This document shows, one piece after another, positions 10,233 through 59,749 of a DNA stretch of 64,000 nt. The translations under genes were made by a program, and so were the position numbers. Origin of the DNA: Gekko japonicus (taxonomy: Eukaryota); assembly GCF_001447785.1 (NCBI RefSeq), contig NW_015174272.1, forward strand, positions 728,286-792,285, read 5' to 3'. The notes beneath the pieces were generated by a model, which saw only the letters and a program-made list of their open reading frames with translations, did no database searches and was not told where the DNA came from. How positions within the stretch are numbered: the first letter of the stretch is position 1; the number at the start of each line of letters is the position of its first letter.

Positions 10233-10575
10233 GTGGCCGAGAACATGAATGCAGAAAATCCCCATTTCAGTACTGGCATCTCCAGTAAAAGGCCGCAAAG
10301 ACAACTTTCCATAGCCCTACTGGGAATCCTTGGACAGATACTGATAGAGTTAACCCTAAAGGACTAGATGGACCTATGGTGTGCCTCAATATAAGGCAAA
10401 TTTATATGTTCAAAATGCTGCACATTTTGGATCTCCCTTGCTGGATTATTACAAGTGATTAATACCCAACTTGTCAGGGTCTTGTGTCCATCAGTGAGAA
10501 CACATAACTAGTGCTTCTCAAGATCAGAAACGAAAACTGGGATCTCTCCTCTTGCTGCTGAAAATCCATACATAC

Positions 10576-10857
10576 CTCTCATGGTAAAGTTGAAGCCAAG
10601 GCTATATTTTCCTTTACTAAAATTTTCAGCTTTGCATTTATATTCACCCAGTCCACTGATTGAATTGATAGGGAAGTGAAACTCAGCTGCTTCTCCGCTC
10701 TTGTTCTTGCTTGCAGGAGGTTGCACTCTCTCTTTTCCTCTATATAGCGTGTATGTAATGGGCAGAGAACCAGTCCTTGAGAAGCAAGACAGCGTCACAT
10801 TCTCACCTATACGAACTTCTGTTGAGGAACAGTTGACCATGGGTTGAGACACAGGCT
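10576..10857 (-). CDS. MILR1-like receptor exon 4, Ig-like domain 2
   Basis: 282 bp phase 1-1 exon; GENVTLSC...GSLPITYTLY...GEYKCKAEN...KYSLGFNFT. Confidence 0.9.
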
Positions 10858-11594
10858 CTGAGCAAAAAAGGCACATCACCAGGAGTCCACCATTAATTTT
10901 TAAACATCACATTGCGATATGCTGACAGAAAAATAGTACTCCGATTATTAATATGCAAATGTTGCCAACCCTCAGCATTTGTATGTCTACAGAAGGGATG
11001 TTACGTGTGTGTCACTTTCTGCACAATTAAAGTGCAGTATTTGAATGTTTACAAAATATATTCTGTTTGGTTCACGGGATATGTAATGAACAGGAAGGTC
11101 CCATTCATCTACCATGACTTGACAGGAGGGGCTTTCATGGATGAAGCTGAGAGAGCACCTGCACTCCCAATAGGATTCTTGAATCCAGAGTTATCAGGGG
11201 TGACAATGTCTGATTTGGGAGATGTGTTGGGAAGACATCAGTGGCACTGGATATTGCTGACCCTGACCTGATACCACAAATATCAAGCATGTTATCAGGT
11301 TGGCAGTATCCAAATACACACCCCTAGCAGGATAAAACATTACCCAGGAAAAGGGTCGCTCTCCTCCCTGGCATGATCTCCCCATGGAGGGAGGGCTGGC
11401 TAGTGACGGCAGCTGTGCCAAAGGCCCTGAGTGTGAGATGAGCGAGTCCTTTCCTTGTGTGTGGTAACCCCCAGGCCATTGCCCCAGTGGGACTTTCCCC
11501 AGTGCCCATAATGGCTGAACTGTCCCTGTGAAAAGGCATGTCTCAAGATCAGACCATGCAATTGGAAATTTGTGTCTAGAAAATACACACGTAC

Positions 11595-11879
11595 CTCTCA
11601 GTGTGAAGTTGAAACCAAGGCTGTATTTATTTTTATTAAATTTGTTTTCAGCTTTGCATTTATATTCACCCAGTTCACTGATTGAATTGATAGTGAAGTG
11701 AAATGCAGCCTCTTCTCCCTTTTTGTTCTTGCTTGCAGGAGGTAGCACTCTGTCTATTCCTTTATATAGTGTGTAGTTAATTGGCAGAGAACCTGTTTCC
11801 GAGGAGCACTTCAGTGTCACATTCTCGCCTATGGCAACTTCTGTTGAGGGACTGCTGATTGTGGGACAAGACATGGGCT
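11595..11879 (-). CDS. MILR1-like receptor exon 3, Ig-like domain 1
   Basis: 285 bp phase 1-1 exon; GENVTLKC...GSLPINYTLY...GEYKCKAEN...KYSLGFNFT resembles allergin-1/PECAM1-type Ig domains. Confidence 0.9.
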
Positions 11880-13215
11880 CTGAGAGAGAGAAAAACCAGA
11901 TCAACAAGAGTCAACCATTAACTTTCAAGCATCACACTGTGATATGCCAAGTACTAAAAACAAAAATGATTTATTATGAAGCAAGTTATCAGGAGCTAGT
12001 GACTACTTAAGCAGATGCATGAAATGTCCTAAGCTGGCAGATGCATTAACACACCTGGCATAGAGGGGGGAGGAACTGTAAACAATGCAGTTAAAAGCCA
12101 ATGAAATGAAAAAGGTAGAATGAGCAATCCAAAGCAAGTCTCCTTAGAAGTAAGTCCTGTTTTATTCAGTGGGACTTATCCCAACAAAGTGTTTTTAGGA
12201 CTGCAGCCAGAATCTGACATTTCTATGCAAAGCTTTCATGTATGCAAGATAAAAAACAAACAAACAGTGACCATTCAAAACAGCAGTTATGACTGAGGAC
12301 AAAATCTTCCTGGATTTGCTAAACTAATTTGACATCCATAGAGGAGGGAACCATTTGTCTGTTAACACAGTTCATGTATCTCTTGCAGTGGGCCTTTATT
12401 CACAAGATGCCATAAGATTCTCACTTGTTTTGGACTTAAAGACTAATGTATCTACCTCCCCAGAATTCAGAACAGGAAAACAACAGGGGAACAGAGATCC
12501 TTAACCCATCCTCTGCTTTAAATTGCCTTCCAGGTTCAACTCTTTTTGCCCTCCTCCCTGCCCTCTCTAGGATTCAAAAAGGTGGGTTAAACCTATCTAT
12601 ATTTTAAGCCTCACAGTAGGAGAAGCAGCTGGGCTTAGTTATGATTTTAGAGTGGGAGTGAGCAAGGTATGGCCACAGAGAGAGAGAGAGATACCACTTT
12701 TCTGGTTAAACCCCCCAGCTGTTTTTAAAAATAAGATCATGGAAGTCTGTGGTGATCTTTTCTGCACAATATGTAGTTATCTGTCAAGTTGATACTGATG
12801 ACTGAAGCACAGGGAGAAGTAAGAGAGGTACAAACAAAAATTCCAGAGTTTGCCAGTTCCCGTTTTGAAGCCTCAAACAATATTTTAATAATATTTGAAT
12901 TTGAGGCTTGAGCAGATGCCCTGCACTAGCATTCACTATTGTTCCTCTTCTATTATATTCACTGTTATAATGGGGGGGGGGTTATCCTGTTGCTCCTGAT
13001 CGTTCTCTCTGTCTGGAAGAAAAGGCTGAACTGAAAGAATAAGGAACAAAATGCAGCTTGGAGATATGCACCATAGACTTTTGCAGAGAGAGTGCAACTG
13101 GTTTATAACTTAATAAAAATGTCTTTTCATTAATCCAGACCCACCTCAAAGAAACCACCCAAACAAAAAATCTTGGTTGCATTGAGCACGCAGCCAGCTG
13201 CCTGCGGAAACTTAC

Positions 13216-15929: not shown

Positions 15930-18868
15930 GAGTAAATCAGAAAGGTTGACCGGAATTTTGATTCCAAGATATTGCCAAAATTTTGTGGTTCATTGAAAGG
16001 CATAGCAAAGTTTGATTTGTTGCTCTGTGCTTTCTGATAGGTAGATGGGGTACAGTAGAGATTTAGCTTGACTAACTCTTAGACCGGAGATGTTGCCAAA
16101 CCAAAACAGGGTGGTATGAATTGACTCTAAAGATGCTTGCGGGTTGGTAATATAAAGGACTAGGTCGTCTGCAAGAAGGCTGAGCTTAAATTCTCTCTCT
16201 CCAATTTGGATTCCAGTATAAGTGGGGTTGCTGCGTAGATCACTGGCCAGGGGTTCCATTACTATGGCAAATAACAGCAGCAATCGTGGACAGCCTTGTC
16301 TCTTCCTGCGGTGTAGGTTGATTTGCTGAGATGTTTGACCGTTGATTAATAGGTAAGCTGAGGGTGATGAGTATGTTGCTGTAATGGTTTTTAGGAAGGT
16401 GTCACCAAACTGCATTTGTCACTGTGAGGTCACTGTGAGGAACGACAATCACATGGCTATAGCAAATGAGGTGCATGACCAGATGAAAAAATGGGACATT
16501 AAATTTCTGTCATGGGCAGATAGAATCAACACTATTAAATCATTCATACTTCCAAAGTATTTATACTGTTTCAGAGCACTCCCAGTTACCATACCTCGCA
16601 CAAATTTTCTGAAATGGCAGCACTCAATCAATGCATTTCTATGGTCATATAAATACCCTCGGATCAGCACTTCCACATTACGATGTCGAATCCAGAAAGG
16701 AGGAATAGCTCTCCCTGACCTTTATACATATCATTCAGCAACAATGCTATCAAACCTAGTTATACAATATCACAATGTGGACAACTTAGACTGGGCTTAT
16801 ATCAAAGAAAGAGAAACCCAAATCCAGTCCCAAACTTTCAAGGAATTGATGTGGTCAGATTCAATGCCAAGGATCTGCATGCTTTCCAAAAAACCCTTTT
16901 TCAAAACTCCAATATCAATGTGGCGTATTTACAGCGATAAACTTATTAATAAATGGTCAATGCTGCGCACATTTACGGGTCAAAACTGGTTCCCACCAGC
17001 AAAAGAAAGCAACTCCTTCGCCACCTGGAAAGCAGTAGGCCTTACGAGGCTCATCGATGTTGTTCGCAATGGAAAAATTCTACTAAAAATTGAACTGGAA
17101 AAGAAGGGCGAGGTTAATCTACCATGGTTTGAATATCTCCAGCTACAACATTTGATTGGATCTCCTAACAACAATAGTACTATTAAAAAGCCACCCACAA
17201 CATTTGAAAGATTCTTAGCCACAAATAGCAAAGTTAAGGGTCTTATAGCCGCCATCTACAAGATTTTAACAGAACTTGCCAATAAAAAACCTAATTTATT
17301 TAGTTAGCTTATTTCCAATAATAAAAGAACATTATAACTGCAACAAATTATCACGAACTAACGAAGGCTTCATGAGATTTTGCGAAGGTATATCCAAATA
17401 TTAAAAGCATACCTTTAAAACAAAGCAATACCTCATTTATAAAGCTATATTAATTGAACATTTACTCTTTAGCAATTTTGTATAACATATTTCCACAACA
17501 GATAGCAGATAGCATACATAAAAATCAGAAACCTAGCCAAAAGACTGAATCTAGTTTGGAAGCATCTAAAGTCTCTGGTGTTCCAAACGATCATGGATCC
17601 GAATGCACAATCTTATTTGGATCCGTTGGTGGTGGGGATGATGATTCTAGTCTTCTGTGATTTCAACGAAACATCCATAGGTATTTCCAGGTTTAGCGTG
17701 CGTAGTAGGGATCTCCCTTCTTCCAGTGAGGTAATACAGTAGCTTTTTCCTTGATGCGAGAGTTGCAAAATAAATGGTGATACCCATTTATAACGGCAAT
17801 TTGCTTCAATTAGACATGCTGTGATGGGTTTCAGTTCCCTCCGTTTTTCAAGTGCCTCCGGCGGCAAATCTTAGTACACCTCAATTTTCGCGCCCTTATA
17901 ACTAAGATGACCTTTTTGTCTCTCCGATTGTAGAATCTTGTTTTAAAACCGTATGTCCAACACTGTCATTAGGATATCCCTAGATGGTTTAGTTTTAAGT
18001 GTAGTTAAAGAACCCAGTCTGTACACTTTTGTTACTATCGGCAAAATATCTCCCTCAGTTGGGACTTCATGAGACAGCCATTTTGAGAGGAAGGTGGAAA
18101 GATCGACAGAGTCTGCCACCTTCTCATCTAGACCATGATTTTTCAGATTATTTTGTCTCATGGACACATCAAGCTTTAAGGCTCTTTCCGCTATGACATC
18201 CTCCCCATGGTGTATGTCTTATTTTATTATTTTATTATTTTTATTTATTATTTAGATTTTTATCCCGCCCTCCCCGAAGGCTCAGGGCAGCTAACAGGGC
18301 ATAATGCCAAATAAAACCATAAAACAGTATAAAATATTAAATTACATAACAATGAATACACAGTTAATAACATCATAAAACATTTTTGGTGTCTTGGATC
18401 TCGTTTTGATTTAACAGAGAATTATTCATCGCGCTTTCCGCTATGGCTCTATTTTCCGTTATAGTTTTCTGCATAGAGTCTATCTGGTCATAAATTGGTT
18501 TCATCATGTTCGCCATGCTGTCTAATAATGTTTTTCCCAGTTTATTTAGGGCTAATGCAAGGTCAGTTGTTGTGACAGGGGTTCCCTCTTTCCCCGTTGC
18601 TGATTCAGTCGGCGCCATTTTAGCCGAGATACAGCGACGCTGGCCAGATAGAAAGGGGCTCGATGTCGAGTCTATTTTAACTTGTACCTTCGTTTTTTTT
18701 CACAGCTATGTATTGGAGAGTTGTTCCAACGTCTTTCTCCATATACTGGGCTTTAGATACGATCTTGCGGTTGGTAGTAAGATTAGAAGAAGAGAAGGGT
18801 TCCTTAGAGTGGAAGCTTCAGGCGGCCATTTTCTTCCAAGCGCCGCCATGGCCCCCCTCTTTGGGGAT
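15930..18868 (-). mobile_element. Rearranged L1: 5'UTR+ORF1 (minus), inverted post-RT ORF2 segment (plus, ~16445-17307), RT core segment (minus, 16415-15930)
   Basis: ORF1-like peptides 17613-18618; RT motifs RQGCP/LADDL/YLG at 15960-16415; LSWADRINTIKSFILPKYLY and GGIALPDL on the plus strand. Confidence 0.85.
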
Positions 18869-20030: not shown

Positions 20031-21379
20031 CTTATATGTGTCATTATAATCCAACATTTCAAAAATTCTCTCACATATTTCACAACAGAGGGAGTCAGTT
20101 ATTTGAAAACTCAACCATCTGCTTTCAGATTGTGCTTGCCATTATACAAACTTTTGTTACATCACAAGTAAATTTCTCTAAAGGAGTCTGAAAGAAGGAG
20201 GGAAGTGTAGAATTGTTTTGATCTTCCTCGGCAATTTATCAAAATCAGTGTGATATATTGGGAGTATATATCATTATAGTAGGAACAGTGTAATAATATC
20301 ATGTGATCAATTGTCTCAGCCTTTCCCATTTGACAAAGATAAACCTGCTGGGAATAAGGAATGCACAAATATCTGCCTTCAGAAAAGCCGAGGGCAAGGC
20401 ATGAAGACGTACCAAAGGGAAGTTACGCCATTGCTTGGGAATCTCTAAGGCAGTGAGATAGTCCGCTGGCAAAAAAGTTGTGGTATGCTACATTGCAGTG
20501 GGGTACTGCTGTAAGCAGCTCCTATCGGATTGAAGGGCCAGGTGCCAGATCCGTTGCTTAATTATTTCTTTGACTTTCTAGAAGCCTACATGTAACAGGT
20601 CTGGGGAGGAGAAGCTATACTCTTGTAATTTACCTTCAACGATTCTCAGCAATTTACCTTCAACAATTCTGTAGTTATCCACAAGAACAAGGGGAGTTTG
20701 TCCCTGAGAGTTGCAATTTAGTTTTAACCAACACCTGGTCATCTGAACTCACGTGCCTGCCTCAAGTGTAACCACAGCCTCCAGCCGGAGGAGAGCATTT
20801 GGGATACATCAAGGGACTCCAAATACTGATGGCAAGAACTTAAATTGCTCTGCTTCCAGAGAGTGAAGATTTTTGTAAAGGCAAAGCTGGGAGCCACACA
20901 TTAAGTAGGCAACCACTTTCCCCTGAAAAACCTTAACTGCTGCATAGATATAAGACTTTTTTTATATCAAAAAAAATCTCAAGATGACTGAGGTCGTTCT
21001 ATGGGCAATCTCAGTAACATGCACAGCTTGAGCTCTCCACAACCCATTAGACTGGAAGACTACACCTAAGTATTTAATAAAACTTTTTACCTGTTTGATA
21101 CCATGTCTCTCAATCTGCCATCTGTGTCTTTCATGGCTTTTGGTGAGGATGAGAATTTTAGATTTTTTATCATTTATCATAAGCTTCTCCTCTTGGCAAT
21201 ATGCAGTAAACGCCCAAAGTGATCTCCTAAGGCATACTTGCAAGTGAGACAGGATTACTGTATCATCTGCATATAATAAGGTGGGAATTGCTCTCTTTGC
21301 TAATTTTGGAGGCTGAAAACCTGAATTTGTAAAAAACTGCACCATAGAGTTGATGTGGAAATTAAAAAGTAGTGGTACC

Positions 21380-22000
21380 TGTCGGGCTCTGACGCGTCCC
21401 GGGGGGGGGCGCCCCCAGAGGCCGCGGCACCGGCGGGCCGTCCCGAGCGAGGAAGCAACGTCCGGAGGTTTGCACGGGAATTTGCGGCAAGCGTGGGACC
21501 TCAGACCGGCAGGGGACGGGGTTGACGTCACCCCACTGTCCCTCTGCCTGGATGCTACGATCACCTCTGTCTCTCTCTCAGCGTCGTGATCGCCACCGCA
21601 TCCACTCCTCCCCGGCCCCCGTCTCTGCCGGACCTTTATTCCCGTGCCGTACACCCGGTGCCGCCCCTTCCTCCCTCGGACGCAAGCCCCGCCCCCCCTC
21701 ATATGGAGGAACGCCGACAGGGCGTTCCCCGCCTCCAGGTAGTTCCCCGCCTCCTCGCGGTTTTCGGCCCTCTCCGTCGGCTTCGGCGGCGTCCCCGGGG
21801 CTCTCGATGCTTGCGGCCCCTCTCGGGCTGCGCCGCCCGCTCCGGGCGCGTCCGCCGTTCCGCTCTCCGCTCCTCGCCGCATCCCGGTCTGCCGGTCGGC
21901 CGCTGCCTGGTGAGTTAGTGCGGGGGCCTGGGGTCGGGGGTCCTTCTTTCCCTTGCCGTCCCCCGGGGGTCTCCGGGTCCCGGACATCGGGAACGGGACA
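21380..22000 (-). repeat. 3' LTR (621 bp, GC/CpG-rich)
   Basis: Direct repeat of 26679-27375; preceded on the minus strand by PPT AGGGGGGGTG (22001-22010). Confidence 0.95.
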
Positions 22001-25000
22001 CACCCCCCCTGGCGCCGGACAACCCGGCGTCGGTCTCGAAGAGTCGGAGCAAGTAGTCGGCCCCTCGGTATATCACTNNNNNNNNNNNNNNNNNNNNNNN
22101 NNNNNNNNNNNNNNNNNNNNNNNNNNNNNNNNNNNNNNNNNNNNNNNNNNNNNNNNNNNNNNNNNNNNNNNNNNNNNNNNNNNGACAACCCGGCGTCGGT
22201 CTCGAAGAGTCGGGACAAGTAGTCGGCCACTCGGTGATCCACTCCAGGCTGATGTCGCACTGTGAAGCGAAAAGGAAGTAAGGTGACATACCACCGAAGG
22301 ACCCGTGCGTTCGCATCTTTCATGCGGGCCATCCAGAGCAAAGGGGCATGGTCGACCACGAGTTCAAACGGGTTATTGGCTAGATAGTAGTGCAGGGTCC
22401 CCACCGCCCATTTGACGGCCAAAGCTTCCTGCTCTACCGTGGAGTACCGCCGCTCCGCGGGTTGCAACTTTCGGCTGATGAAGAGGATCGGGTGTTCTTC
22501 CCCCCCGTTCGATTGCGCCAGCATGGCACCGAGGCCAGTCCCGGAGGCGTCCGTGTAGACGATAAACGGGCGGCTGAAGTCCGGGTTTCGTAAAACCGGT
22601 TCGTGGGAGAGACACTGCCGCAACGTGGTGAAGGCTCGTTCTTCCGCAGGCCCCCATCGTAGTTGGTTAGGGCGGTTCCTCTGCAGGCAGTCTGTAAGTG
22701 GACTGGCTATCGACGCGAACCCGGGGATGAACCGGCTGTAATACCCGACAAACCCGAGGAATCGGCGTAGTTGTCGCTTAGTGACCGGCCGCGGTTGGGT
22801 TTCGAGAGTTGTTACTTTGTCGGGTAGAGGCCGCAGACATCCGTGTCCAACCAGGTATCCCAGGTATTTTAACTCCTGGAACCCCAGGCGGCTCTTTGCC
22901 GGGTTCGCGGTAAGGCCCGCCGCCTTGAGGGCGGAAAGAACCTGATGCAAATGGGATAGGTGGGAATCCCAGTCGGGGCTGCAGACAACGATGTCGTCTA
23001 TGTAGGCCTGTGCAAACTCCCCGCATCCTGATAGCGCGGTATCTACCAGCCGCTGGAACGTGGCCCCGGCCCCATGGAGGCCGAAAGGCATCCGTTTGAA
23101 GTGAAAGAGACCCTGTGGGGTCGCAAAGGCGGTCTTCTCACGGTCTTCTCTACGCATGGGTACCTGCCAGTACCCTTTTGTGAGATCGAGGGCAGACAGG
23201 TACTTAGCGGTGCCCAACTGGTCAATGAGCAAGTCCGCTCTGGGCATCGGGTATGCATCAAACTGGGCCAGTTTGTTCAGCTCCCGATAGTCTACGCAGA
23301 AGCGGACGCTGTTGTCGGGTTTAGGAACTAGCACCACCGGACTCCTCCATGCACTGCGTGATGGTTCGATGATATCCAGTCGCTGCATCGTCTTTACCTC
23401 TTGAGCGATGGCTTCCCTCAATTTTGGTGCGATGGGTCTCCATGGGACCCGCGCCACGCATCCTGGTGGGGTTGCAATCCGGTGTTCTATTAAGTGTGTA
23501 CACCCCGGTGTGGTGGAAAACACTCCCGGGTGGGCTTGCAGCAGCCCAAGGAGGTCTTGGTGCTGGGCCCCCGAGAGCGCCCCGTCCAACACCGGGCGAG
23601 TGTCTGACCCCTCCGCGGCCTGCCATGGGGCCGTGCCGTCGGACAAGTCGTATGGTTCTGCTGCCAACTGTGCCTCGTCTCTGGCCGTCTCTCGCTCGTG
23701 CCACGCCTTGAGTTCGTTCACATGGACGACCTTCCGCTGACGAGCCCGTCGCCCATATCGCACTTCGTACGTCACCGGTCCTAACACCCGAGTGACGACA
23801 AAGGGTCCGTGCCATGGATCTCCATGCGCGGGCGCCATGACAGCCCGCGATACCAAGACTCGGTCTCCCACCTGGAACGTTCTGAGCCGCGTGCCGTGAT
23901 CGTACCGCCTCTTCTGCACGTCCTGCGCCTGGGTCAGGTTGGCGCGCGCGGCCTGCCGGACCGTCTCCAGGCGGTCTTGGAGCTTGCGGACGAACTCGCA
24001 GGGTTCCTCTTCGCTTGCCGTGCCCTCCCCCGGTGGTTGTCCTTCCATGACGGCCAGGAGGCCACGCGGCTGACGCCCGTAGACTAGCTCAAATGGGGAG
24101 AACCCCGTTGACGCTTGGGGTGTCTCCCTCAGGGCAAAGAGGACGGGGTCGACATACAGATCCCAGGCCGTGGGCCTGTCGTACGCCGCCTTCCGCAGCA
24201 TGTTTTTGAGGGTCTGGTTCATGCGCTCCACCAAACCGTCGGTCTGGGGGTGATGCACGGAGGTATATGTCTGCCGGATGTGGAGGGTCGCACATACCTG
24301 GCGCATGAGCTGAGCGGTGAAAGGTGACCCTCGGTCCGTCAGGATTTCTCGAGGGAGGCCACCCCACGCAAAGTAGCGCATGAGGGCCCTAGCGACCCCA
24401 GCGCTTTTAAGACTGGGGAGAGGGATGGCTTCGGGGAATCTTGTTGCGTAGTCCATAATTACGAGTAGGTATCGGGCCCCTCGCGGTGTTCGGGGTAATG
24501 GCCCGACGAAGTCCATGGCCACCCTCTCGAACGGTACCCCCACGATGGGCAACGGGGACAGGGGGGCCCGGGGTTCGGGCCGGTTGTTGGATCTCTGGCA
24601 GATGTCGCAGGAGCGGCAGTATGCTTTTACATCTCTTGCTACCGAGGGCCAAAAGAAGTGTGCGAGCACACGAGTCATCGTGTTCTTGACCCCCTGGTGT
24701 CCCGCCCAGGGATGATCATGGGCCATGCGGAGGACGGTGGGGATGTACCTGTAGGGCACTAATAGCTGGCGGTAGGCCCCCACCCGTCCCCTTACCTCAC
24801 GGAACCACCGCCCCCCCTCCTGGGAGATGTGGGGCCCCCGCTGGGCGAGCCTAGGGTCTACCGGTGCGCCATCCCTCACCGCTATCCGTCGTCGCAACCC
24901 CTCCAACGCTTCGTCCTCCTCCTGCGCACGGCTAAAGCGAGGGTCGCTTACCCAACTGTCGACCGCGTCGTCCATGTCTCCGCTCCGGCTGTCCTCGGGA

Positions 25001-26454
25001 CCCCTTTCGTCCGTCGGGGCGTTGTCCCCTTCCCCGTTCGGGTTTTCCTCTGGATCTCGCTCACCCGCCGGGGCGGCCCACTCTTGGGCCGCGGCGCCCT
25101 CTTCCTCTTCTTCCGTTGGCCTGGCCGCCGCCAGCGCTTCGACGAAACACGGGGCGTCACGTCCCAGGAGGATCGGGAATGGTAGTCGTCTGACCTTTGC
25201 CATGGGGACCTCCCAGCGTCGCCCGAGATAGGTCAAAGCCCCCATCACGACCGGGCAGCGCTCCTCGTGTCCATGGAAGCAGACCACGGTCGCAGTACGC
25301 ACTACGGGGAGCCACTCGGGAAGAAGGTGTGCCCGTACTAGTGACAGGGAGCTCCCGCTGTCGACCATGGCTTTGACATCGTGCCCTCCTATGCGCACCG
25401 GTAGCAGCCAGGCTGGGGGTCGACGCCCCACGGCCGAGGTCTGGAGAGCCGCCTCGTGTCCCCCGTCGCATTCCATAAGAGGGCAGTCGCGGCGGAGGTG
25501 TCCCCACTGCCCACACGTGAAACACGGGCCTACCCCCCCCGGAGGCCGCGTTCCGGTGCTTGGTTGCTGGGCTCCGGAATCGCCCCGGCCCGGGCCCGTC
25601 TTGCTACCGGTCGGCCCGCCCCAGGGGATGGGCAGGGGCCCCACCACGGGCGCTCCTCGGGCTCCCGAGGTCCTGGCCCGTCCGGGCTTACTTCCGTCGT
25701 CTCCGGGACGGGGCCCTGGCAAGCCCCCGGGCCTACCGGGGTGGTAGCTCCCCCGCCCGGCCTTCGGTGCCTCACCTCGCACACCGTGGTCTCGCCCCTC
25801 GGCCGCCAGGAAGTTTTCCCAGAGTTCCTGGGCCTCGCTCAACTTGACGGGCTTCCAGCAGGTGACCCAGTGTCTCGCCCACGGGGGTAGTATGACCAGT
25901 AGCTGTTCGAGCACTACCAGCTCTACCACCCTTTTTGCGTCGTCGGACGTGGGTGTCAACCATCGAGTGGCTGCGTCCTTGAGGGCGGCGATGACGGCCC
26001 GCGGCCGGGCCGGCGAGGGCAGTTGGTAGGTCCGGAACCGCTGACGGTGCGTCTCAGGGGTGACTTCTAGGCGATCCAAGACAGCGGCCTTCACCTTGTC
26101 ATAATCGGAGGCATCCGCCCGCTCCAACGCCTTGACGGCCGCCTGTGCCTCCCCCGTGAGGTATGGCCCTAGAACGTGGGCCCACTGGGTCCGAGGCCAC
26201 TGTGCCGCTTCTGCCAGACGCTCAAAGGCCTCGAGGTATGCCTCGATCTCGTCTTCGGGGCCGAACTTTGTGAGGGCTGGCCAGGGCCCTCGCCCGGCCA
26301 GGTTCTGCACCCCTCCCTGGGCGGGCCTAGTCGCCATAGCTTGCTGCAGGTCCCGTACCAGGGCGGCTTGCGCCGTCTGTTGTTGGTGCGACAGGTCTCG
26401 CAACAGCTGTGCTTGATGTTCGGCCAGCCATTGGCCGAATTGGGTGAAATCCAT
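21915..26454 (-). CDS. Gag-Pol polyprotein (capsid/SCAN, CCHC knuckle, protease, integrase, RT, RNase H), ~1457 aa if the 22078-22183 gap is collapsed
   Basis: First ATG 26454 (MDFTQF); SCAN-like PETHRQRF...WLTP...ELVVLEQLL; CFTCGQWGHLRRDC; MVDSGS; HDHPWAGH..CRSCDIC, MDFVGP, TDRG, GLVERMN; YIDD at 22993-23004; TDASG..EQEALA..ADYLSR; no internal stops in sequenced bases. Confidence 0.92.
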
Positions 26455-26657
26455 GCCGGATGGCGTGGTGTGCCTCGGGTCGGGCCGTGCCTTTATGGAC
26501 TCCTGACTGGAGTCAGACCCCTCGGATTCCTCTGACGACGGGGAGAGTATTTCCTCCACGGTTGCTGGGGCGCTTCCTCGGCTTGTGCGTTCCCTTGGTG
26601 GAAGCCACCCCGGGGGTACGGGCAGGCGAGGGGTCGGCTTCCCTAGCGGGCCGGGCC

Positions 26658-26675
26658 TGCCCGCATTCTCCACCA
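26658..26675 (-). promoter_or_regulatory. Primer binding site complementary to tRNA-Ala 3' end
   Basis: Minus strand TGGTGGAGAATGCGGGCA, 3 nt inside the LTR; complement TGCCCGCATTCTCCACCA matches the recalled vertebrate tRNA-Ala(AGC) 3' end + CCA. Confidence 0.85.
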
Positions 26676-26678
26676 CGT

Positions 26679-27375
26679 TGTCGGGCTCTGACGCGTCCCG
26701 GGGGGGGCGCCCCCAGAGGCCGTGGCACCGGCGGGCCGTCCCGAGCGAGGAAGCAACGTCCGGAGGTTGGCACGGGAATTTGCGGCAAGCGTGGGACCTC
26801 AGACCGGCAGGGGACGGGGTTGACGTNNNNNNNNNNNNNNNNNNNNNNNNNNNNNNNNNNNNNNNNNNNNNNNNNNNNNNNNNNNNNNNNNNNNNNNNNN
26901 NNNNNNNNNNNNNNNNNNNNNNNNNNNNNNNNNNNNNNNNNNNNNNNNNNNNNNNNNNNNNNNNNNNNNNNNNNNNNNNNNNNNNNNNNNNNNNNNNNNN
27001 NNNNNNNNNNNNNNNNNNNNNNNNNNNNNNNNNNNNNNNNNNNNNNNNNNNNNNNNNNNNNNNNNNNNNNNNNNNNNNNNNNNNNNNNNNNNNNNNNNNN
27101 NNNNNNNNNNNNNNNNNNNNNNNNNNNNNNNGCGGTTTTCGGCCCTCTCCGTCGGCTTCGGCGGCGTCCCCGGGGCTCTCGATGCTTGCGGCCCCTCTCG
27201 GGCTGCGCCGCCCGCTCCGGGCGCGTCCGCCGTTCCGCTCTCCGCTCCTCGCCGCATCCCGGTCTGCCGGTCGGCCGCTGTCTGGTGAGTTGGTGCGGGG
27301 GCCTGGGGTCGGGGGTCCTTCTTTCCCTTGCCGTCCCCCGGGGGTCTCCGGGTCCCGGACATCGGGAACGGGACA
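26679..27375 (-). repeat. 5' LTR (contains N gap)
   Basis: 4 substitutions + 1 G-run indel versus the 3' LTR over ~390 comparable bases. Confidence 0.95.
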
Positions 27376-27691
27376 GTACCCAAATGCATCCCTGTTTCAT
27401 TCCTTTTGCAAGTGGGATGTTCTAGATAAATGGCCCTGGAGCCTCTTACACGTAGGAAATTACTTTCATGCAACATATGAATGAGTATATAAAGTCTTCT
27501 TTCTATTGTGGAGTTCTCAAGCTTTGCCCATAGCCTGTGTCCAGGAATACTGTTAAATGCAATTTTAAAATCAACAAATGGAGCATATAATGCCCCACAG
27601 GGCTTAGAACTGTATTCTCTGCTCAATGGTGCAATCAAGCACTGATCTATAGCTGAGTGACCAGCTCTAAACCCTGTCTATTCCTCCATTA

Positions 27692-28136
27692 GTCCCCGGT
27701 CACACGAGAGGTTTTGGGTTGGGAGAGGGACGGATCGGGGCCGCAGCAAACGGGCACGATCCCACCGCAACATCTGGGAAGCGTTGCGCACCCGTCCCCG
27801 ATCCGGCCCTTCCGCCCAAAACACCGCAGCAAAAATAAACCACCTACCAAGGTGGTTCTTCTGGCAAGGCCGCATCAAGGCCGGCCATGGGATTGCCGGC
27901 GCATCCTTCCGCCAGCGCATCCCCGGCTCCTGGCCAAACTGCGCATGCTCACGCATGCGCAGTTCGGCAGCCTCCCCCTCCCAACCATGGCTTCCTCCCC
28001 AGCATCTGATCGTGCCGGGGAGCAACGGCGCCACGGCTCAGGGGATCCGTGGGATCCCGCCGTGGCGTCTCTATTTTGGTGCGGCTCTGATTAGCCGCAC
28101 TTTGCCCGTTGTTTTTTCTGCCGTGTGGCAGGGACC
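27692..28136. mobile_element. CpG-rich MITE, probably PIF/Harbinger-like
   Basis: TIRs GTCCCCGGTCACACG / CGTGTGGCAGGGAC; TA or YTA duplication; removing it restores the host LINE frame (ESVL.EE.TGFRAG). Confidence 0.7.
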
Positions 28137-28776
28137 TAGTACACTTTCTTGGTCCCTCCAGTCCCAGAGTTTCCAGTATAAATGTCTAGAATAAAGCTTG
28201 GTAACCACACTAAGAAGTCTAATTGGGCAGTAATTCGAAGGGTTGGTCCTTTCTCCTTGTTTGCATATTGGGACAATAATGGCCAGACTCCAATTACTAG
28301 AAATCTGGGCTGACTGGTCAATATGTGTGAAAAACACAGCCAGGATTGGGTTTCATCACAATATTTGATTTGCTCAGTTCTGGGGAGATCATGTCACTTC
28401 TGGGAGCCTTTCCTGCGTTCAGTTGGTTTAATCTTTTAACCTCCAAAACCTGCCTGAGGAAGTCAGGTAGGCTCCCAATCTTCTGGCATTTCACAAACTA
28501 TGTAAAACAGAATTGTTCAGCAGGGCATTTTAATAAAGAGAACAGGATTATATTAAAATGATTCAGGTAGATGCTTTAATAAATTGAACAGAAGGGTGGA
28601 CTATATGTCTGTGTATAGTACATATTATCTGTTGCTTTATGTATTATTTTGCTCTTACTGCCTTGTATTTCTATTCATGCAATACCGTTTTCTTTATTGT
28701 TTAATATGCCATGTTTAATGCTTGTACTTGTTTCAGATTTCTGCTTTGTAGTGGCTGCGTTGACTTACATTGTGTA

Positions 28777-29057: not shown

Positions 29058-30311
29058 GTGTAATTCTTCTTGAGTCGCAGTGAGGAAGGCAAACAAACAA
29101 ATGAGACGACCAGTTGAATTTCACCAGCTTCACTAATAAAAGAGCCTTGGGCTAATAACCACCTGCCAAATCTCAGACCTTAGTTTTGAATGGTTACATG
29201 TTGTTTCCTCTATTTCCTTAACTTAGAGACAAGCGAAGCTACTCCATCCTGCCTTGAATGAAACCTGGGAATGGCATGTTCAGGCTTTTGAGGTACCTCC
29301 TTATAGCTCTGGATGTCTTTTATACAGTTCTTGAGAGCAGGCTTCTTCCCAAGCATATGTTTTAATCCACTATGTAGTTACTTCAGATTTATCTGGAGAA
29401 ATACCTTTGGTTCTTAACAAAAAAGAAAACTGCTGATTTGATATTTTACCTTAGACTGCCAGAGAAGGCTTCCACAATGTACTTGGATGAGGAATAACCT
29501 CCTCCATACAATAACATTCTTCCTAACACACTTGACATGTTGACACATAGGCTATAATGGAGAAAAAATTGAAGCTAATGACCTTAGAAGGGTGTAATGT
29601 GTTTAGGAGATCCCTGCTAATGGGTTGCTGAGGGAATATTCACCTCACCGTGTCAAAGGCAGCATGGTGTAGTGGTTTGAGTGTTAGACTAGGTTCTGGG
29701 AAGCCCAGGTCTGAATCCCTGCTCTGCCATGCAAGCTTGGGCCAGTCACATATTTTCAGTCCAATCTACTTCACTTGGTTGTTGTGAGGATAAAATGGAG
29801 GAGAGGAACATAATGTAAGCTGATTTGGGTCCTTATTTGAGGGAAATGGGAAATAAAGAATGAAAGTTACATTTAGAAAACCAGATAAAAACATCTTCAT
29901 CTTTACAAAATAACTCCAAAAATAAACTATTGATGCATGCAGTTTGGTTAGGTTCACTCCTTAAAACGGAGTAGATAAATCCTAGTTTTGAATTCCCTCA
30001 CTGAACAATTAGAAAAAGCTATCCAGTCCCTCACTCAGCTGCTCTTTTGCACTTCCAGCCACTCACCAGGTCGTTAGCTGATTTTACCCACTTGAGAGGG
30101 TATTGTCTTACTAGTAGTCGGAGCAGGCACCTAGCTTTTTGGCCCTGTAGGCCCTTCTTCTCTCCCTCTGGGGATGGCAGAGCTTGCCACGGCCACAAAA
30201 AACTTCACAGGAAGAGAAACACACACTCACACCTCACTCATCTCCCTCATCGATTTCAATTATTTACAGACATGTCCAGTCAACTAGTAGACTTTTACAG
30301 GGTATAATCAT

Positions 30312-30603: not shown

Positions 30604-30824
30604 TTATACAGCCCGGACACTTTTAGGCCAAGACCATGTCAGGACAAGGTCCGACAAAACTGTGGGCAGGTAAGAGAGTGGGATGAAGAAGAACTGGGCG
30701 TCCCAGCCCCCAGAATAGCGAGTCCGGGGGTGCTTGGATGTCAAGGCGTGTTCCATGCAGTCAGTGACCAGATACAGGTCAGTAGAGCACTGAGTTACGA
30801 GTGCCTCCTTGAACATCTTGTAAT
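30604..30824 (-). CDS. RDH16-like coding exon 4 and stop
   Basis: VTDCMEHALTSKHPRTRYSGGWDA...LSYLP; four exons total 957 nt = 318 aa + stop. Confidence 0.95.
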
Positions 30825-33438
30825 CTGTGGGGAAGGAAAAGAGAGGGAGTTTGTAATGAGATTTGATGGAACAGGCAATAAGAAGCCCCAGCTTTGAACA
30901 GCTTTAGATCAACAGTAGCAGTTGCTGTCTCAAGCACCTTTCTTTGAAAGGGACACTCTGAATTTGGAGAATTCCTGCCCATTCCCTAAAGTTAAGGAAT
31001 ATATGTGTAGGTGGGGCTGTCCCAAGGCAAAATGGTGGCCAACAAACACACACAGCATGAGGGAGGCCAATGGGCCTGGCTATGGCACAGAGTTAGGTCA
31101 GCCTACTTCTTCCCCACTGCACATATGCCTGTTCTCTTACCTACTGGAAGCAAACCATAGCAAAGGGACAAGGGAATGTTGACATACGGCACACAAGTGT
31201 GGTTCTATCACATACATCAGACCAGCCTTGCAAATAAGCCAATTCAGAGCCAATTCTTATTTACCTCAGGCAACCGGGCTTGCTTGCCACAAAGACTAGC
31301 CTCTGTAGCTATAGACATATCCTTCCTCTGCCCCAACTATACCTTCTCTATAAAATGCCTGCCACAGGAGGGAGGAGACACATAACCTGAAGGAGTATTC
31401 CTCGCCTGCACTGTCTAGCATGTGCAGATGAACACATGAAGCTGCCTTACACTGAGTCAAACCCTTGACGTTACCAAGGCCATAGTGCAATCCTAAGCAG
31501 AGTTACGCCTTTCTAAATCCATTCAAGTCAAAGGGCTTAGAAGGGTGCAACACTGCTGAGGATAGAACTGTAAGAATTAACTGACTGGCAGCAGCTCTCC
31601 ACGATCTCAGGTAAAGGCCTTTCACACTTGTATGCATGTGTCAAGTGCTGTTGAGTCACTTCTGATTCATGGCCACCCTAGGAATTAATGACCTCCGAAA
31701 TATCCTATTGTCTGGGGTAGGGGCCAAGTCCCGGTCTTGCCGAGCCCACTGTGATGGTCCCGGAGTGTACAGGGGACAGCTGGAGTACCCCCCCACACAC
31801 ACACAAGGCACCCCAAGCCTCTCCTGATGCCCGGGATTCACTTCCCAGCAGCATGGGATGAGGGGAGCATGTTAATGGTGACCTCAGCCGCCAATGGAGC
31901 AGGGGAAGTCAGCCAGGAGGCAGAACACTGGGCGGCAGCAGCCTCCAGCAGTACAGCAATGCCGACACCAACTGGAAATCCACCAGAACCTGGGCTGCTT
32001 GGGAGGATGCCTGCAGGACCTATGGGGGGGGTCGGCGTCACCTCTCCCTACGAGTAGCGAGCAAGACAGTGGAGCACAGGCTCCCCCAGGGTGAGCAAGC
32101 AGGGCCTCACAATGTGGTGGGGTATGTGGGCATAGATTCCACTGTGAGGTGGCCCCTGCTCCGCCAACCGATCCCGCTGGGGTGGACTGGCAGCCAGGCC
32201 TTGCTGTGGACTCCAGTACTGTCAGTACCAACCGAACGGGGGAGCAGTACAGAGGCCATGAGAGATGAGCCACCTCAGAAGCAAGGTGGGGTGATGGACC
32301 TGGCCCAGTTCGGGCAGTAGCTGGCAGAACACCAAGCCCAGCTACCGTGGGATGTCATGCAGCAACATGGGAGTCCCAGGCTGCCCTGCTCCAAGACTTT
32401 GGGCAAGTGCTGGAGGCAACAAGGGCCAGGCCCAGCAGGGCAGGGCTGACAACGAGCCGAAGATGGGGCCCATAGTTTCCTTTGACTAAGCTGGGCCCAG
32501 AACATGCTGTTGATGCCTTTTAGGACACCTTCAAGTGGGCAGCTGAAGCAGCCCAGTGGCCAAGGAAGCAGTGGTCCTGTACATTGGGGCCTTACTCGAC
32601 TGAGGAAGCACGTACAAGCCACCCTTAAAGCCCTGGTAAAGGAAGATGCTGCAGACTACAAGCTGCCATCCTGGACCGGTTCAAGATCTCACCAGAAATC
32701 TACCAGCAGAAGTTCAGGATCATACTGTACAAACGGGCTGGGCACCCCCAGGTCCTTATGGCGACCTTGAAAGGCACACCGTGATTCACTGGCTGAAACC
32801 CATCAAAAAGGACAGGAGGTGGATTGTGGACCAGGCTGTGCAGGAGCAGCTGTTGGAGGTCATTCCCCAATGGGCCCAGCAAAGCATGGCCTGTTGCAGG
32901 CTGGTGTACATGAAGGAAGGACTTTCTTGTGGCTGAAAGCCGGGAACAACCCAAGGAGAGCAGCCAGCCTGAGGACAAGGCGGGGGCCCCACAAGAAGGG
33001 CCAAAGAATCCCATGGAGGCAGAGCAAGGATCCTGGCACCGAGGAACCTGGCTCACCCTGGCAGGTCCACCCAGGATGGTCCGGGCCCCTCACAAAGGGA
33101 CTGGGGAGCATGGCCCCTGTGGCTGCACTTTTATAAGGAATACCCCCCTGATATGATAGAATGCAACGTGGGCTCGGATGTGGCCATGTAGGTGACCTCT
33201 CAGGTTCCAACCCCTCGATGACAGTAGTGCCGATCACAGGATAGAGGCTTTCGGCAATGCTGGATCCTGGTTGTTCCATCTCCACGATCAGCATGCAGCT
33301 GCTGCCAGATAATCTACCGGTGGTGCACGCAGCATCTATCATGTGCTTCCATGGCCATGCTGAGCAGTGTCCAATGGTCAGTGTGTTGGTGATGTACCAA
33401 AGAGTCACCTGAGAGGTGGAGCTCACTCGGGCTGAGGC

Positions 33439-33645
33439 CAGTGTTCCCTCTAAGTTGAGTTAGTATGAGCAAGCTCACAGTTTTTTTAGCCTCCGGCTCA
33501 CATGTTTTTGTCTTAGCTCAGGAAGGATGGCTCCAGAGCAAAATAAATTAGGCAGTAGCCAAATCGCTCGCTCACAACTTTAATGCTAGTAGCTCACAAA
33601 GTAGAATTTTTGCTCACAGGACTCCACAGCTTGGAGGGAGCATTG
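33439..33645 (+). mobile_element. hAT MITE family A copy 2
   Basis: TIRs CAGTGTTCCCTCTAAG / CTTGGAGGGAGCATTG; TSD gctgaggc/gttgaggc. Confidence 0.85.
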
Positions 33646-33833
33646 GTTGAGGCCCTCCTGTATCCCATTCTCCTAGGGGGAGGTGCCCCAAATGTCCAGC
33701 GTGACCTGACAGCCCCAGCAGCAGCTGAGGCAATGCTGCAGGAGGACTTGGCAGATGAACCAGTGGAACATAACGGCCAGGATCCACACAACCCCATCCA
33801 CACACACACTGGGGCAGGGACCTGGAATTCCTG

Positions 33834-34556
33834 GGCTACAGTCACACGGGCCGGAAAATGCGGGGTGGAAGCATGGCTGTTTGCCCCGGAGCAAACTAAC
33901 GCGTGGTTGTGCAATCAGACGTCCCCTCAAGGTCCTGTCGAGGTCCCGTGGTTAGGGGGGAGGTGCTGATCACACGATGCGGCAAAGAAGCAGCGCGGCG
34001 CGGCAAACGGGGCTGTGTTTTGTTTTTAAACTGAAGTGTGCGCATGCGCCGTTGGGTGCTTGTGCGCATCCCATGGAGACTTGGAAAAAAACCCTTTTTG
34101 CATGTCGTACCCCACCCCCACCCACGAACCCCCTGCCTGCTCCATGGCCTTTCCCTTGAGTCCCCACATTGTCGTCACACACACACCCCGCACTCGTGCC
34201 TTGCCCAGGAGGTGATGCCAGCGTTGATCATCCCAGGAAGGTGCCGGGGGGGGGGGCTGGCTGGTGCAAAGCTCTTTCTCCCCCTCCCCCACAACGACTC
34301 GTCTGCTCTTCTTTCCTCTTCATCTGAATTGCGCTAGAAGAGAACGGCGCTGCTGGGAAGGGAACTCCGGGGTGGGGTGGGGGGGACACACCTTTTTGCG
34401 AGGGGACATGGGCGGGCGCCGGATGCCACTGGAAACACAATCAGACGCCCACCCTTGCCCCGCGGTTACCGTCTTTGGAGGGAAGCCTCGGGTTCGCCAT
34501 GGGAGCCCTACGCTTCCGTCTCAGTAGCGTGGCTACTGCTCCGTGTGACCGCAGCC
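33834..34556. mobile_element. CpG-rich PIF/Harbinger-like MITE
   Basis: TIRs GGCTACAGTCACACGG / CCGTGTGACCGCAGCC; 3-bp TSD CTG. Confidence 0.75.
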
Positions 34557-35059
34557 CTGGAGCGGCTGCGAGAGGCTATGGTGGTGAGTGAAGGGGTGGC
34601 CTGAGAAGAGTGGCGTAGGAGGCAGCTACCCTGGGTCACAAGGGACGGGTGTGTGTAGCTCCAATTGGTGCAGGGCAAGGGAGCTGAGGTCAAGCACTGC
34701 TAGTGCCCCACAGGTACCGAAAGAAGGTGCTGACCTTCACCCATGACCACCCCTGGGAAGGCCACCACAATATCCTGGCCTGGGTCCTCCTAGTCCACTT
34801 CTTTTGGCCCTCTGTGGCCCAGGATGTTCAGTAGTTTTGTAAGTCATGGTTGATGTGCCAACAGGCCTTGGGCGGACCCCTTCCTCATGCCCTGCTGTCC
34901 CATCATCCAGGCACCATTTGGGCAGAATTGCAATGGATTTTGTGGGGGCCCTACCTTGCACTCCATGTGCCCCCCCAATATTTACTGGTCATCATGGACT
35001 ATGCTACCTGCTACCCAAGGCTATCTCCATCACAACATTAAGACAGCGGGGGTTGCTTG

Positions 35060-35265
35060 CAGTGTTCCCTCTAAGCTGAGTTAGAGTGAGCTAGCTCACA
35101 GTTTTTTAGCCTCCGGCTCACACATCTTTGTCTCCGCTCAGGAAGGATGGCTCCAGAGCAAACTAATTTATGCAGTAGCCAAATTATTTGCTCACAACTT
35201 TAATGCCAGTAGCTCACAAAGTAGAATTTTTGCTCACAAGACTTCACAGCTTAGAGGGAACATTG
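35060..35265 (+). mobile_element. hAT MITE family A copy 3
   Basis: Same TIRs; exact TSD gttgcttg. Confidence 0.9.
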
Positions 35266-35455
35266 GTTGCTTGGGCCTTGTTGCATTTCGTCCCTCATGT
35301 GGGGTTGCCATGAGAGTTCCTGACCGATTGGGAAACCCCATTCACAGCAGCCCCGATGAAGCAAATGTGCCAGACATTGTGGATCCACCAGATTTTCACC
35401 ACTGTCCACCCCCCACCCACCCCCGGATGGACAGGCTGGTGGAAAGATTCAGGAC

Positions 35456-36412
35456 TGTCGTGGACCAGCCAAGCCCAGAAGAGCAAAGAGGCACATAAGA
35501 CTCTTCTGAGGAAGAGGCAGCCAGCAGACCTGACTCCAGCCCACAGCCAGCAGCAGAGCCACTGCAGGAGGAGGCAGTCTCTGAGGGGCCAAACATAGAT
35601 CCTCAGCCAGGTACCACCACAGTGGCCCTTCAGCCTCCCAGCCCTGAGCTGGCAACAGTGTTACGTATTGTGCTTTAGCTTGGATCTCACCTCTATCTAA
35701 GTCTGGTATTGTAAAATGCACGGCCTGATTGGCTACTCTGAGCAGTGGGCCAATCAGGGCATAAGAAAGGTACTGAAGGGAGATGAATTCATTGGTTGTT
35801 ATGATAGTATTCTGATTGGATGTTAACTCAGCCAGGGGCGTGGTTATCTAAGCCCAGATAGTTTAAAAGAGAGCCTGTTGCTCTCCTGTTTGTGTTCGTT
35901 CTTGTCTTGTTCTAATAAAGCTGAATCACTTGTTAATGAGCTGCCTGAAGTCTCGTACTTAACAAACAGAGAGCCAGTTGCCAGTCAGTTCACACACCCC
36001 ATCACCAGGAATGCCATAGGAGGAAGATGAGGAGAGACCTTCAAGACAGAAGGCACAGTTGCCCGCCTAGCAGCATGGCACCGGCCCAGCATCAACAGTG
36101 AGGATGACTACTTGCAGGAGCATGACCGAGGCAGCTGGCATGTGCATAATGCAATAGAGGCTGTTGAGCAGTGTGGTGCTTAAGAGCTACAGGGAAGGGA
36201 GTGGCTGTATAGAAGCAACTTGTCTGATGGTTGCCGACCTTGCTGCCTGTGCTCTGGATTGACTTCTTTGTCTCTGATCCTGACCTGTACCTTTGTATCC
36301 TTGTTCTCAGATTTCCCTTTGGACTAGAAGCTGTATTTTGACACCTGACCGTGGAACTGCTTTACAAACTCTGACACTTAGAAACTGTCTCTTTGGGCCA
36401 GCGATCAGGACA
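35456..36412 (+). mobile_element. Probable old solo LTR splitting the integrase of the degenerate Gmr1 copy
   Basis: TGTC...GACA ends; integrase text stops at RLVERF and resumes at IKTML; layout resembles 39913-40443; TSD only 3/5. Confidence 0.55.
35659..35964 (+). mobile_element. Solo LTR (306 bp)
   Basis: TGTTACGTA...GTACTTAACA, CCAAT boxes, AATAAA, exact 5-bp TSD aacag. Confidence 0.85.
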
Positions 36413-37193
36413 ATGATGATCAAAACTATGCTCAGCAAGCTGGCCTGAGACTACCCCACCCAGTGGTACCTCTACATGGACCCCTTGTTATTTGCAGCAG
36501 AGGAGACCCCCATCCTCCCTGGGGTTCACCCTCTTTGAGTTGGTATATGGCCAGAGGCCCAGGGGCATCCTGGATTTAATGGAGGACCAGTGGGTTCCTG
36601 CCCACCCAAAGCAAGGATTACCGCCTCCTGAGTACATGAGGTGGCTTCACAATCAGTTGGAGAGGGCTCAAGTAGAGGCTAGCCAACATCTGGGAGAGGC
36701 CCAACAAGCCCAGAAAAGGCAGTATGACCAGGGGACCTGGGACAGGACTCTCCAAAATGGGGCCAAGATGCTGGTAAACTGGAGGGCGCTGGCTATAGGT
36801 CATGGAGACCTGTGGCAGGGCCTGTTCTGGGTTACCCAGGTTCTGAGGCCCCTGTCTTACAAGGTGGAGTGTGGGCCCCCTCCGTCAACAGAAGAAGCTC
36901 CACATAAATGACCTTACGGAGAGGCATGAACGCAATACACCAGACTGTCACCTAGCCAAAGACCTGCTGGAGCTGTGGATGGAGAATTACCATGGTGACA
37001 ATCCAGCCGCACCCCAGAAGCACCTCTCCAAGATGGGGAGTTGAGCCCCTCCCAATGCTCTGGTGTCCTGAAGCTGCCTGGTAAAATATAGATCCTTCAT
37101 CCCAATGGCTGAACCAAGGAACAGTTACTCCCAGATTCAGTTCACTAGCAAACCCATCACATTGCTCCCATACTGAGAGTATAAGTGACTTAC

Positions 37194-37357
37194 AGTTGTC
37201 AAAATAGGTCTGGCCATAACTATCTTTGGTTTCCTGTGCAACATTGGTCCAGATCTGCTCCAGTTTGTTGAGGTTCCCCTGGACGTCTGTCATGCCGGTT
37301 CTAAAGTAGCCTGGTTCTATTATGGCTATTTTCACCCCAGATGGGCGGAGCTCACGT
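37194..37357 (-). CDS. RDH16-like coding exon 3
   Basis: RELRPSGVKIAIIEPGYFRT...YGQTYF; 164 bp. Confidence 0.95.
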
Positions 37358-39298: not shown

Positions 39299-39616
<318 letters not shown>

Positions 39617-59708: not shown

Positions 59709-59749
59709 CAGTATAGCTAAGGATGTGAACTTCTGTTTTCTTTTTGCAG

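Follow-up and report, generated by a model that had tools for sequence, protein, structure and literature searches.

Is the CpG-rich retrotransposon found in this part of the Gekko japonicus genome a young member of the Gmr1-like family, and does the SCAN domain in its capsid bear on the SCAN proteins of its host? The DNA analysed, which we refer to as the window, is 64,000 nucleotides long (contig NW_015174272.1, positions 728,286 to 792,285), and its minus strand holds at 21380-27375 a long terminal repeat (LTR) retrotransposon of the Gypsy/Metaviridae type. This is very probably a young, near-complete copy of a Gmr1-like element, that is a Ty3/Gypsy element in which integrase precedes reverse transcriptase (RT), belonging to a gecko lineage with relatives among turtle elements and inserted by integrase into a dead long interspersed element (LINE). 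The family, its domain order and the descent of SCAN from a capsid are already in the literature; the element is not a new kind but belongs to a family established in vertebrates, one whose capsid piece was long ago the source of a widespread host domain, and it offers useful test material.

An earlier sequence-only reading had placed the ends at these same coordinates, which proved exact by the LTR termini, TG...CA in both LTRs, and by the target-site duplication (TSD) it had also reported, identical at both ends and found for k=5 alone when direct repeats of k=3-8 were tried. Its estimate of about 99% LTR identity holds where the two can be compared, with 388 of 392 aligned columns identical (99.0%, four substitutions) plus one homopolymer indel, a comparison that covers 392 of 621 positions owing to the gap in the 5' LTR. 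The insertion site is confirmed independently, as the element splits a single LINE RT match into RVT_1 profile positions 43-106 upstream (E-value 3.6e-4, below cut-off) and 127-204 downstream (E-value 2.2e-8). The coordinates of all parts are collected in the table.

Features of the element and its insertion site, in window coordinates
Feature	Position	Strand	Amino acids (aa)	Details
TSD, 5' side	27376-27380			GTACC, 5 bp, same as 21375-21379
TSD, 3' side	21375-21379			GTACC
Decayed LINE RT gene interrupted by element	20965-27677 (pieces 27378-27677, 20965-21374)	-		RVT_1 matches
5' LTR	26679-27375	-		N-gap 26827-27131; 242/244 and 146/148 identical to 3' LTR flanking gap
Primer-binding site (PBS)	26658-26675	-		18 nt, starts 3 nt past 5' LTR; complement terminates in CCA
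Single gag-pol open reading frame (ORF)	22184-26454	-		ATG at 26454 to gap at 22183; 1,423 codons, 0 stops, 0 X
Capsid N-terminal lobe	26065-26292	-	~55-130	AlphaFold2 model, mean predicted local distance difference test (pLDDT) 92
SCAN, read as capsid C-terminal lobe	25798-26058	-	133-219	PF02023 60.2 bits, cut-off 27, E 1.8e-16
CCHC zinc knuckle (nucleocapsid)	25480-25527	-	310-325 (zf-CCHC)	PF00098 23.0 bits, cut-off 20.8
Aspartyl protease	25135-25401	-	~352-395	Catalytic D365; Pfam below cut-off, E 0.007-0.11
Integrase	23707-24759	-	566-625 (Integrase_H2C2), 641-736 (rve), 883-916 (Integrase_p58_C)	HHCC zinc site, D648-D707-E743 core, C-terminal domain; PF17921, PF00665, PF22938 above cut-off
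RT core	22855-23328	-	1043-1200 (RVT_1)	D1090, YIDD 1151-1154; PF00078 103 bits
RNase H	22222-22581	-	1292-1394 (RT_RNaseH)	D1302, E1343, D1368, D1411; PF17917 116 bits; all four precede gap
Assembly gap, end of pol	22078-22183			106 N
Polypurine tract (PPT)	22001-22010	-		Directly adjoins 3' LTR; read from sequence
3' LTR	21380-22000	-		621 nt, 72% GC, 76 CpG; AATAAA at 21640, three GC boxes, no TATAA

The earlier description of one uninterrupted gag-pol frame with its catalytic motifs stands in part: the codons are free of stops and the residues are present, but the frame is open only as far as the gap at 22183 and its stop codon does not lie in continuous sequence. As the last RNase H aspartate (22222-22224) comes before the gap, the gap touches the C-terminal tail alone. 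On its far side the contig frame passes through the PPT and stops at 21917-21915, inside the 3' LTR. One of the four LTR differences falls within this pol-tail stop codon (21915-21917 / 27290-27292, minus strand), where the 5' LTR has a sense codon. Protease, integrase, RT and RNase H have every catalytic and zinc-binding residue checked, and 97-100% of a full-length homologue set made up of the best 120 of 1,281 matches carry the same residues: 97% have protease D365 and G367, 99-100% the seven zinc and catalytic residues of integrase, and 98-100% the catalytic residues of RNase H. No envelope gene was found between pol and the 3' LTR.

The PBS contains an out-of-frame ATG, which opens a 7-codon upstream ORF. 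The primer is putatively tRNA-Ala; Rfam and ARAGORN found nothing over the window and so gave no name for it. The same 18-mer appears among grass-carp small RNAs in PMC4698583, as expected for a conserved tRNA end. The element arrived by an integrase-type insertion, and every part for an intracellular cycle is present. From what is known of Gypsy biology, the GC-rich 5' LTR would drive a transcript translated into the single polyprotein, which the element's own protease would cleave; the two-lobed capsid, with SCAN as its second lobe, would build an intracellular particle, a host tRNA would prime reverse transcription at the PBS with the PPT priming the second strand, and the integrase would insert the resulting cDNA.

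Placement among integrase-first Gypsy elements

The RVT_1, RT_RNaseH, Integrase_H2C2 and rve profiles of the Gypsy type all score above cut-off, and Pfam gives the domain order SCAN-CCHC-protease (PR)-integrase (IN)-RT-RNase H (RH), with integrase upstream of RT as the sequence-only reading had it. PR-IN-RT-RH is the order by which Gmr1-like elements are defined in a preprint surveying 68 genomes, which describes them as carrying SCAN, then PR, IN and RT-RH, and reports them abundant in fish and turtles and depleted in mammals and other reptiles (bioRxiv 2025.03.03.638093). Elsewhere, frog Gmr elements were counted at about 200 copies in Silurana, and more than half of them in frogs carry SCAN, according to PMC4131045.

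Among the matches listed, the nearest full-length relative is a polyprotein of the leopard gecko Eublepharis macularius (LOC129333892, P0001; 57% identity over 100% of the length), followed by turtle proteins at 43-45% and then by those of frogs and fish; fish, frog and turtle polyproteins together are 37-47% identical. Integrase precedes RT in all 120 full-length homologues, a set whose selection by whole-length score favours equal order. As a less biased check, the RT alone served as query, and every RT was classed according to whether an integrase stands before or after it (139 first, 108 last, 76 unknown, 13 both). In the FastTree phylogeny of 248 rows (140 IN-first, 108 IN-last), from which the 89 rows with unknown or double labels were excluded, the element groups with IN-first rows only, in a clade of 137 (support 96), of which 129 carry SCAN. 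IQ-TREE on 63 rows places it in a 40-row clade with 35 IN-first, five unknown and no IN-last rows (SH-aLRT 96). A tree of IN plus RT-RH for 32 named rows pairs the two geckos (100/100) and then joins them to all nine turtle rows (100/99), and the IQ-TREE RT phylogeny likewise sets the gecko pair with turtles. Gecko with gecko and then turtles fits vertical descent in sauropsids. Horizontal transfer was rejected, as the tree follows host groups among the 31 named homologues sampled.

The element shares both the SCAN-PR-IN-RT-RH order and the IN-first RT clade with Gmr1-like Ty3/Gypsy elements of fish, frogs and turtles that have a SCAN capsid, and differs from them only by host and divergence, on a long gecko branch and in squamates, a group in which the 68-genome survey reports such elements as depleted. 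The leopard-gecko polyprotein has the same domains and is 73% identical in RT, yet it represents a distinct family, and the terminal branch of the Gekko element is twice as long (0.40 vs 0.19). No protein more than 57% identical to the polyprotein occurs among the matches listed (782-2491 aa), the window holds no second copy, and the literature searched, which covers few subscription journals, contains no paper on a Gekko Gmr1-like element.

Age, coding capacity and alternative explanations

The high GC content and retained CpGs singled out by the sequence-only reading are plain in the numbers: GC is 0.65 and the observed/expected ratio (o/e) of CpG 0.91 in the element, against 0.41/0.22 on one flank and 0.46/0.31 on the other. 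For the ORF by itself CpG o/e is 0.89, compared with 0.14-0.19 in the interrupted LINE and 0.19 in the coding parts of an old Gmr1-like relic 5 kb away in the window, and this contrast indicates that the copy is young. The LTR divergence of 1.0% (95% range 0.3-2.6%) translates, if substitution rates of 3 to 1 x 10^-9 per site per year are assumed, into 1.7-5.1 million years (range 0.5-13). The recent insertion proposed at the outset is upheld, with movement of the family placed roughly within the past few million years. CpGs make up 110 of 393 positions, yet they account for just one of the four LTR substitutions (P 0.03 with a tenfold CpG rate, 0.12 with a fivefold rate). Some of the divergence may therefore stem from RT error, recombination or assembly, and the insertion may be more recent still.

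Several observations weigh against the element as a young, intact Gmr1-like copy. FastTree sets the gecko pair basal to a 127-row clade rather than with turtles, and three IN-first rows fall outside the clade, these being the second or third RT of predicted proteins with multiple RTs and so probably mislabelled. Membership of the Gmr1 clade is indirect, for no sequence among the matches is named Gmr1, and it rests on domain order together with the IN-first clade; the RT check called for earlier was passed in this indirect sense. The polyprotein also departs from 18 of 238 highly conserved columns, where the homologue median is 4. Ten of these departures are common to the leopard-gecko element and read as lineage traits, which leaves eight unshared ones (aa 551, 697, 734, 778, 807, 1009, 1311 and 1390), four of them in the integrase core region, against five unshared in the leopard-gecko element. 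In 600 simulations 0.5% neutral change, a setting in which all LTR divergence arose after insertion, left the ORF open in about 10%, with about 15 missense changes; at 0.14% change the simulated neutral ORF was open in about half. It is doubtful, though quite possible, that this copy can still transpose.

The intact look could in part be a product of assembly, reads of similar copies having been merged in a gapped draft, so that this exact sequence may not exist on any single chromosome; we consider this unlikely. The window has seven N runs, two of them within the element, and the 5' LTR gap is written as 305 N where the matching 3' LTR stretch has 228 bases, 77 nt fewer. The flanks of the pol gap share a 52-nt repeat (49/52 identical), which suggests overlapping contig ends as the simplest explanation, or else a short tandem duplication. 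The scarcity of CpG changes between the LTRs is likewise unlike usual methylation-driven ageing, but RT error, recombination within the family or an unmethylated LTR explain it equally well, both LINE junctions and the exact TSD lie in unbroken sequence, the 4.6-kb interior contains no N, and even a merged sequence still implies a young family. A chromosome-level assembly of G. japonicus is reported in PMC10776941. Domestication, in which selection on a host gene has held the frame open, would account for the long ORF and the CpG-island-like composition, and several homologues are auto-named 'Gypsy retrotransposon integrase-like protein 1'; it is very improbable for an element with 99% identical LTRs, an exact TSD, an intact PBS and PPT and a site in a decayed LINE, whose nearest relative among the matches listed is just 57% identical. 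We give hardly any credence to a Ty1/copia element, a group in which PR-IN-RT-RH is the normal order. Domain order alone points that way, along with a copia capsid ranked fourth among the fold matches (Z 9.9, root-mean-square deviation (rmsd) 6.5), although the capsids of all groups have the same fold. RVT_1 (103 bits), RT_RNaseH and Integrase_H2C2 match, and RVT_2, the copia-type RT profile, is absent from the 15 families found at E<=1. The RT profile on the one hand, and the LTR, TSD, PBS and PPT evidence on the other, led us to reject copia identity and domestication, and a young Gmr1-like insertion remains the reading adopted here.

The relic used above for comparison (32115-37076, plus strand) is an old, decayed Gmr1-like element in the last intron of an HSD17B6-like gene and antisense to it. 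The relic retains pieces of gag, protease and integrase, disrupted by stops, frameshifts and repeat insertions; no RT-RH, no partner LTR and no DNA similarity to the young copy were found in it. Its PBS (32115-32132) is identical to that of the young copy at 15 of 18 positions, where chance would give 0.04 such matches in the window. The presence of such a relic near the young copy points to repeated waves of these elements in the gecko genome. The C-terminal 35 residues of a Gekko kuhli HSD17B6-like protein (P0132) match the antisense strand of the relic at 80% (33208-33312, minus strand), and a related relic in the same G. kuhli intron may have been caught in the gene model.

The SCAN lobe and host SCAN proteins

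The SCAN domain that the sequence-only reading had expected at about 25800-26070 scores above cut-off. A sequence search of the PDB with this region returned mammalian SCAN domains in five of five matches at E<=1 (ZNF24, ZSCAN10/Zfp206, PEG3, MZF1 and ZNF174; E 2.8e-10 to 9.7e-6). In the element it is preceded by a capsid N-lobe and followed by a CCHC knuckle, and Pfam gives neither a C2H2 array nor a KRAB match. A host SCAN zinc-finger gene was rejected on these grounds, the domains of pol following SCAN instead.

An AlphaFold2 model of aa 51-230, built from a 93-row alignment (pLDDT 92, predicted template modelling score 0.77), shows two helical lobes. As a whole it superposes on the capsids of murine leukaemia virus (MLV; Z 10.1, rmsd 4.5, 173 residues) and dArc1 (Z 9.2, rmsd 3.9, 158 residues), and its SCAN lobe on the dArc2 C-lobe (Z 10.4, rmsd 2.2, 84 residues) and the MLV capsid C-terminal domain (Z 10.1, rmsd 2.0, 82 residues). 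These Z values lie below the tool's caution mark for helical folds, and more weight attaches to how uniform the list is: the best 36 rows are capsids or capsid-derived proteins without exception. Foldseek gave no match at E<=0.001, with Arc, PNMA2 and SCAN structures as its leading rows, and the leads in the ESM Atlas were all <0.9, SCAN clusters ranking first. Taken together, sequence and predicted fold identify SCAN here as the capsid C-terminal lobe. PMC10516033 leaves SCAN aside because the capsid profiles used there missed it.

The lobe is predicted to pair with itself (score 0.74, against 0.17 for the best of three controls), with runs agreeing in 100% of contacts and pLDDT at least 89. 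In calibration on microbial proteins 21 of 30 pairs passed the pairing mark, compared with 0 of 23 single chains; among eukaryotic proteins 17 of 29 pairs did so (7 of 16 in animals; one of seven where no older solved relative existed), compared with 0 of 30 single chains. Resemblance to solved SCAN or capsid dimers may account for the pass of this lobe. The 41 predicted contacts centre on model residues 115-133 and involve few residues of the first two helices, a list that reads as a closed dimer of the capsid type rather than the swapped dimer of host SCANs. On the PEG3 SCAN the model superposes over 50 residues only (121-170, Z 5.1, rmsd 2.4), compared with 82-84 on capsid C-lobes, a weak contrast given the tendency of single-chain models to close domains that are swapped. 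Residue 173 (Pfam position 41), which lies at the predicted two-fold axis, is an alanine aligned with a lysine of ZNF24; lysine occupies the equivalent position in 15 of 120 homologues. We infer that it corresponds to K41, which the 68-genome preprint describes as enriched in host SCANs and involved in pairing (bioRxiv 2025.03.03.638093).

The sequence-only reading had called the Gag of such an element cognate to host SCANs and proposed an interaction assay between the two. 'Cognate' is overstated: host SCANs are reported to form a single clade that goes back to one ancient capture (bioRxiv 2025.03.03.638093), dated before the tetrapod ancestor in PMC8321522, and the element domain is 32-34% identical to solved mammalian SCANs. 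By sequence, host SCANs are its distant relatives, not its cognate partners. The assay restates a hypothesis of Emerson and Thomas (2011), relayed in a 2015 review (PMC4592553), that SCAN targets host proteins to capsids; the review also relays their prediction that lizard SCAN zinc-finger proteins bind Gmr1-like DNA, and describes experimental evidence for capsid binding as lacking. In the literature searched, no experiment that tests SCAN on a Gmr1 capsid was found. A search for longer proteins, with the SCAN lobe as query, gave one match among 378 candidates (P0390, 53%, SCAN only) and no gecko SCAN zinc-finger protein.

One may nevertheless imagine a Gmr1-like family still active in Gekko beside a large SCAN zinc-finger repertoire, its closed-dimer capsid lobe, without the host-enriched lysine, being bound by some gecko SCAN zinc-finger proteins that pair with it and spoil particle assembly. 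If so, SCAN would have had an original defence function, with an arms race at the dimer interface; we hold this to be improbable. The SCAN homology is real, by Pfam and PDB matches alike, the lobe is predicted to self-pair, with the reservation just given, and squamates are described as having SCAN zinc-finger genes expanded and Gmr1-like elements depleted (bioRxiv 2025.03.03.638093). A precedent exists in yeast, where Drt2, an endogenised Ty1' capsid C-terminal domain whose fold matches the element lobe (Z 7.7, rmsd 3.1, 86 residues), restricts its parent, as PMC10951436 reports. Drt2, however, derives from the subfamily that it restricts, whereas the split between host SCAN and Gmr1-like Gag is placed before amniote or tetrapod history or early in it (PMC4592553, PMC8321522). 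Low identity to solved mammalian SCANs, the alanine at the predicted two-fold axis and the closed capsid-type interface argue against the idea, and in the preprint host SCAN pairing is described as selective and human SCAN zinc-finger proteins as having a nuclear, DNA-binding role (bioRxiv 2025.03.03.638093). SCAN in this element is simply a working capsid domain, and the observations need no host restriction through SCAN pairing.

What the copy adds is a young squamate example for the old question of capsid binding. With Gmr1-like elements depleted in non-turtle reptiles and SCAN zinc-finger genes expanded in squamates, both as given in the preprint, a host that has both is a natural place for a test; the word 'gecko' is absent from the main text of that preprint (bioRxiv 2025.03.03.638093). 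Lizard Gmr1-like elements were known by 2011, according to PMC4592553, and full-length turtle relatives are many, so the copy is a convenient reagent and not a unique one.

Neighbouring features of the window

The gene that hosts the relic is a four-exon HSD17B6/RDH16-like gene (30607-40935, minus strand) matching Gekko japonicus P0131 with exons at 96-100%. Its exon 1 matches 104 residues of the Gekko japonicus protein at 100%, with identity of 96% for G. kuhli and 80-88% for other geckos, and an extra fragment at 29431-29544 corresponds to exon 2 of a paralogue. The interrupted LINE carries, 300 bp from the 5' LTR, a GC- and CpG-rich insert of about 440 bp (27690-28138). A palindrome lies at its centre (27933-27968) and its inverted ends are weak, an equally high score being reached by 30 of 1000 shuffles; the insert may be a non-autonomous DNA transposon.

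Further away, 59707-59910 (plus strand) holds a stretch that resembles an exon of the DNA primase small subunit and has no Pfam match. Two segments that are 80% identical lie at 10560-11947 (minus strand), one of them encoding an immunoglobulin domain, and represent exons of an immunoglobulin-superfamily gene. An L1-like LINE occupies 42266-47739 (minus strand) in several frames, with endonuclease (45045-46118) and RT (43931-44533) matches, and another L1-like piece lies near 16146-17307. A repeat of about 205 bp, probably a short interspersed element, occurs in five copies that are 83-92% identical (10030-10234, 33438-33649, 35060-35269, 38574-38794 and 54246-54432), two of them inside the old relic.

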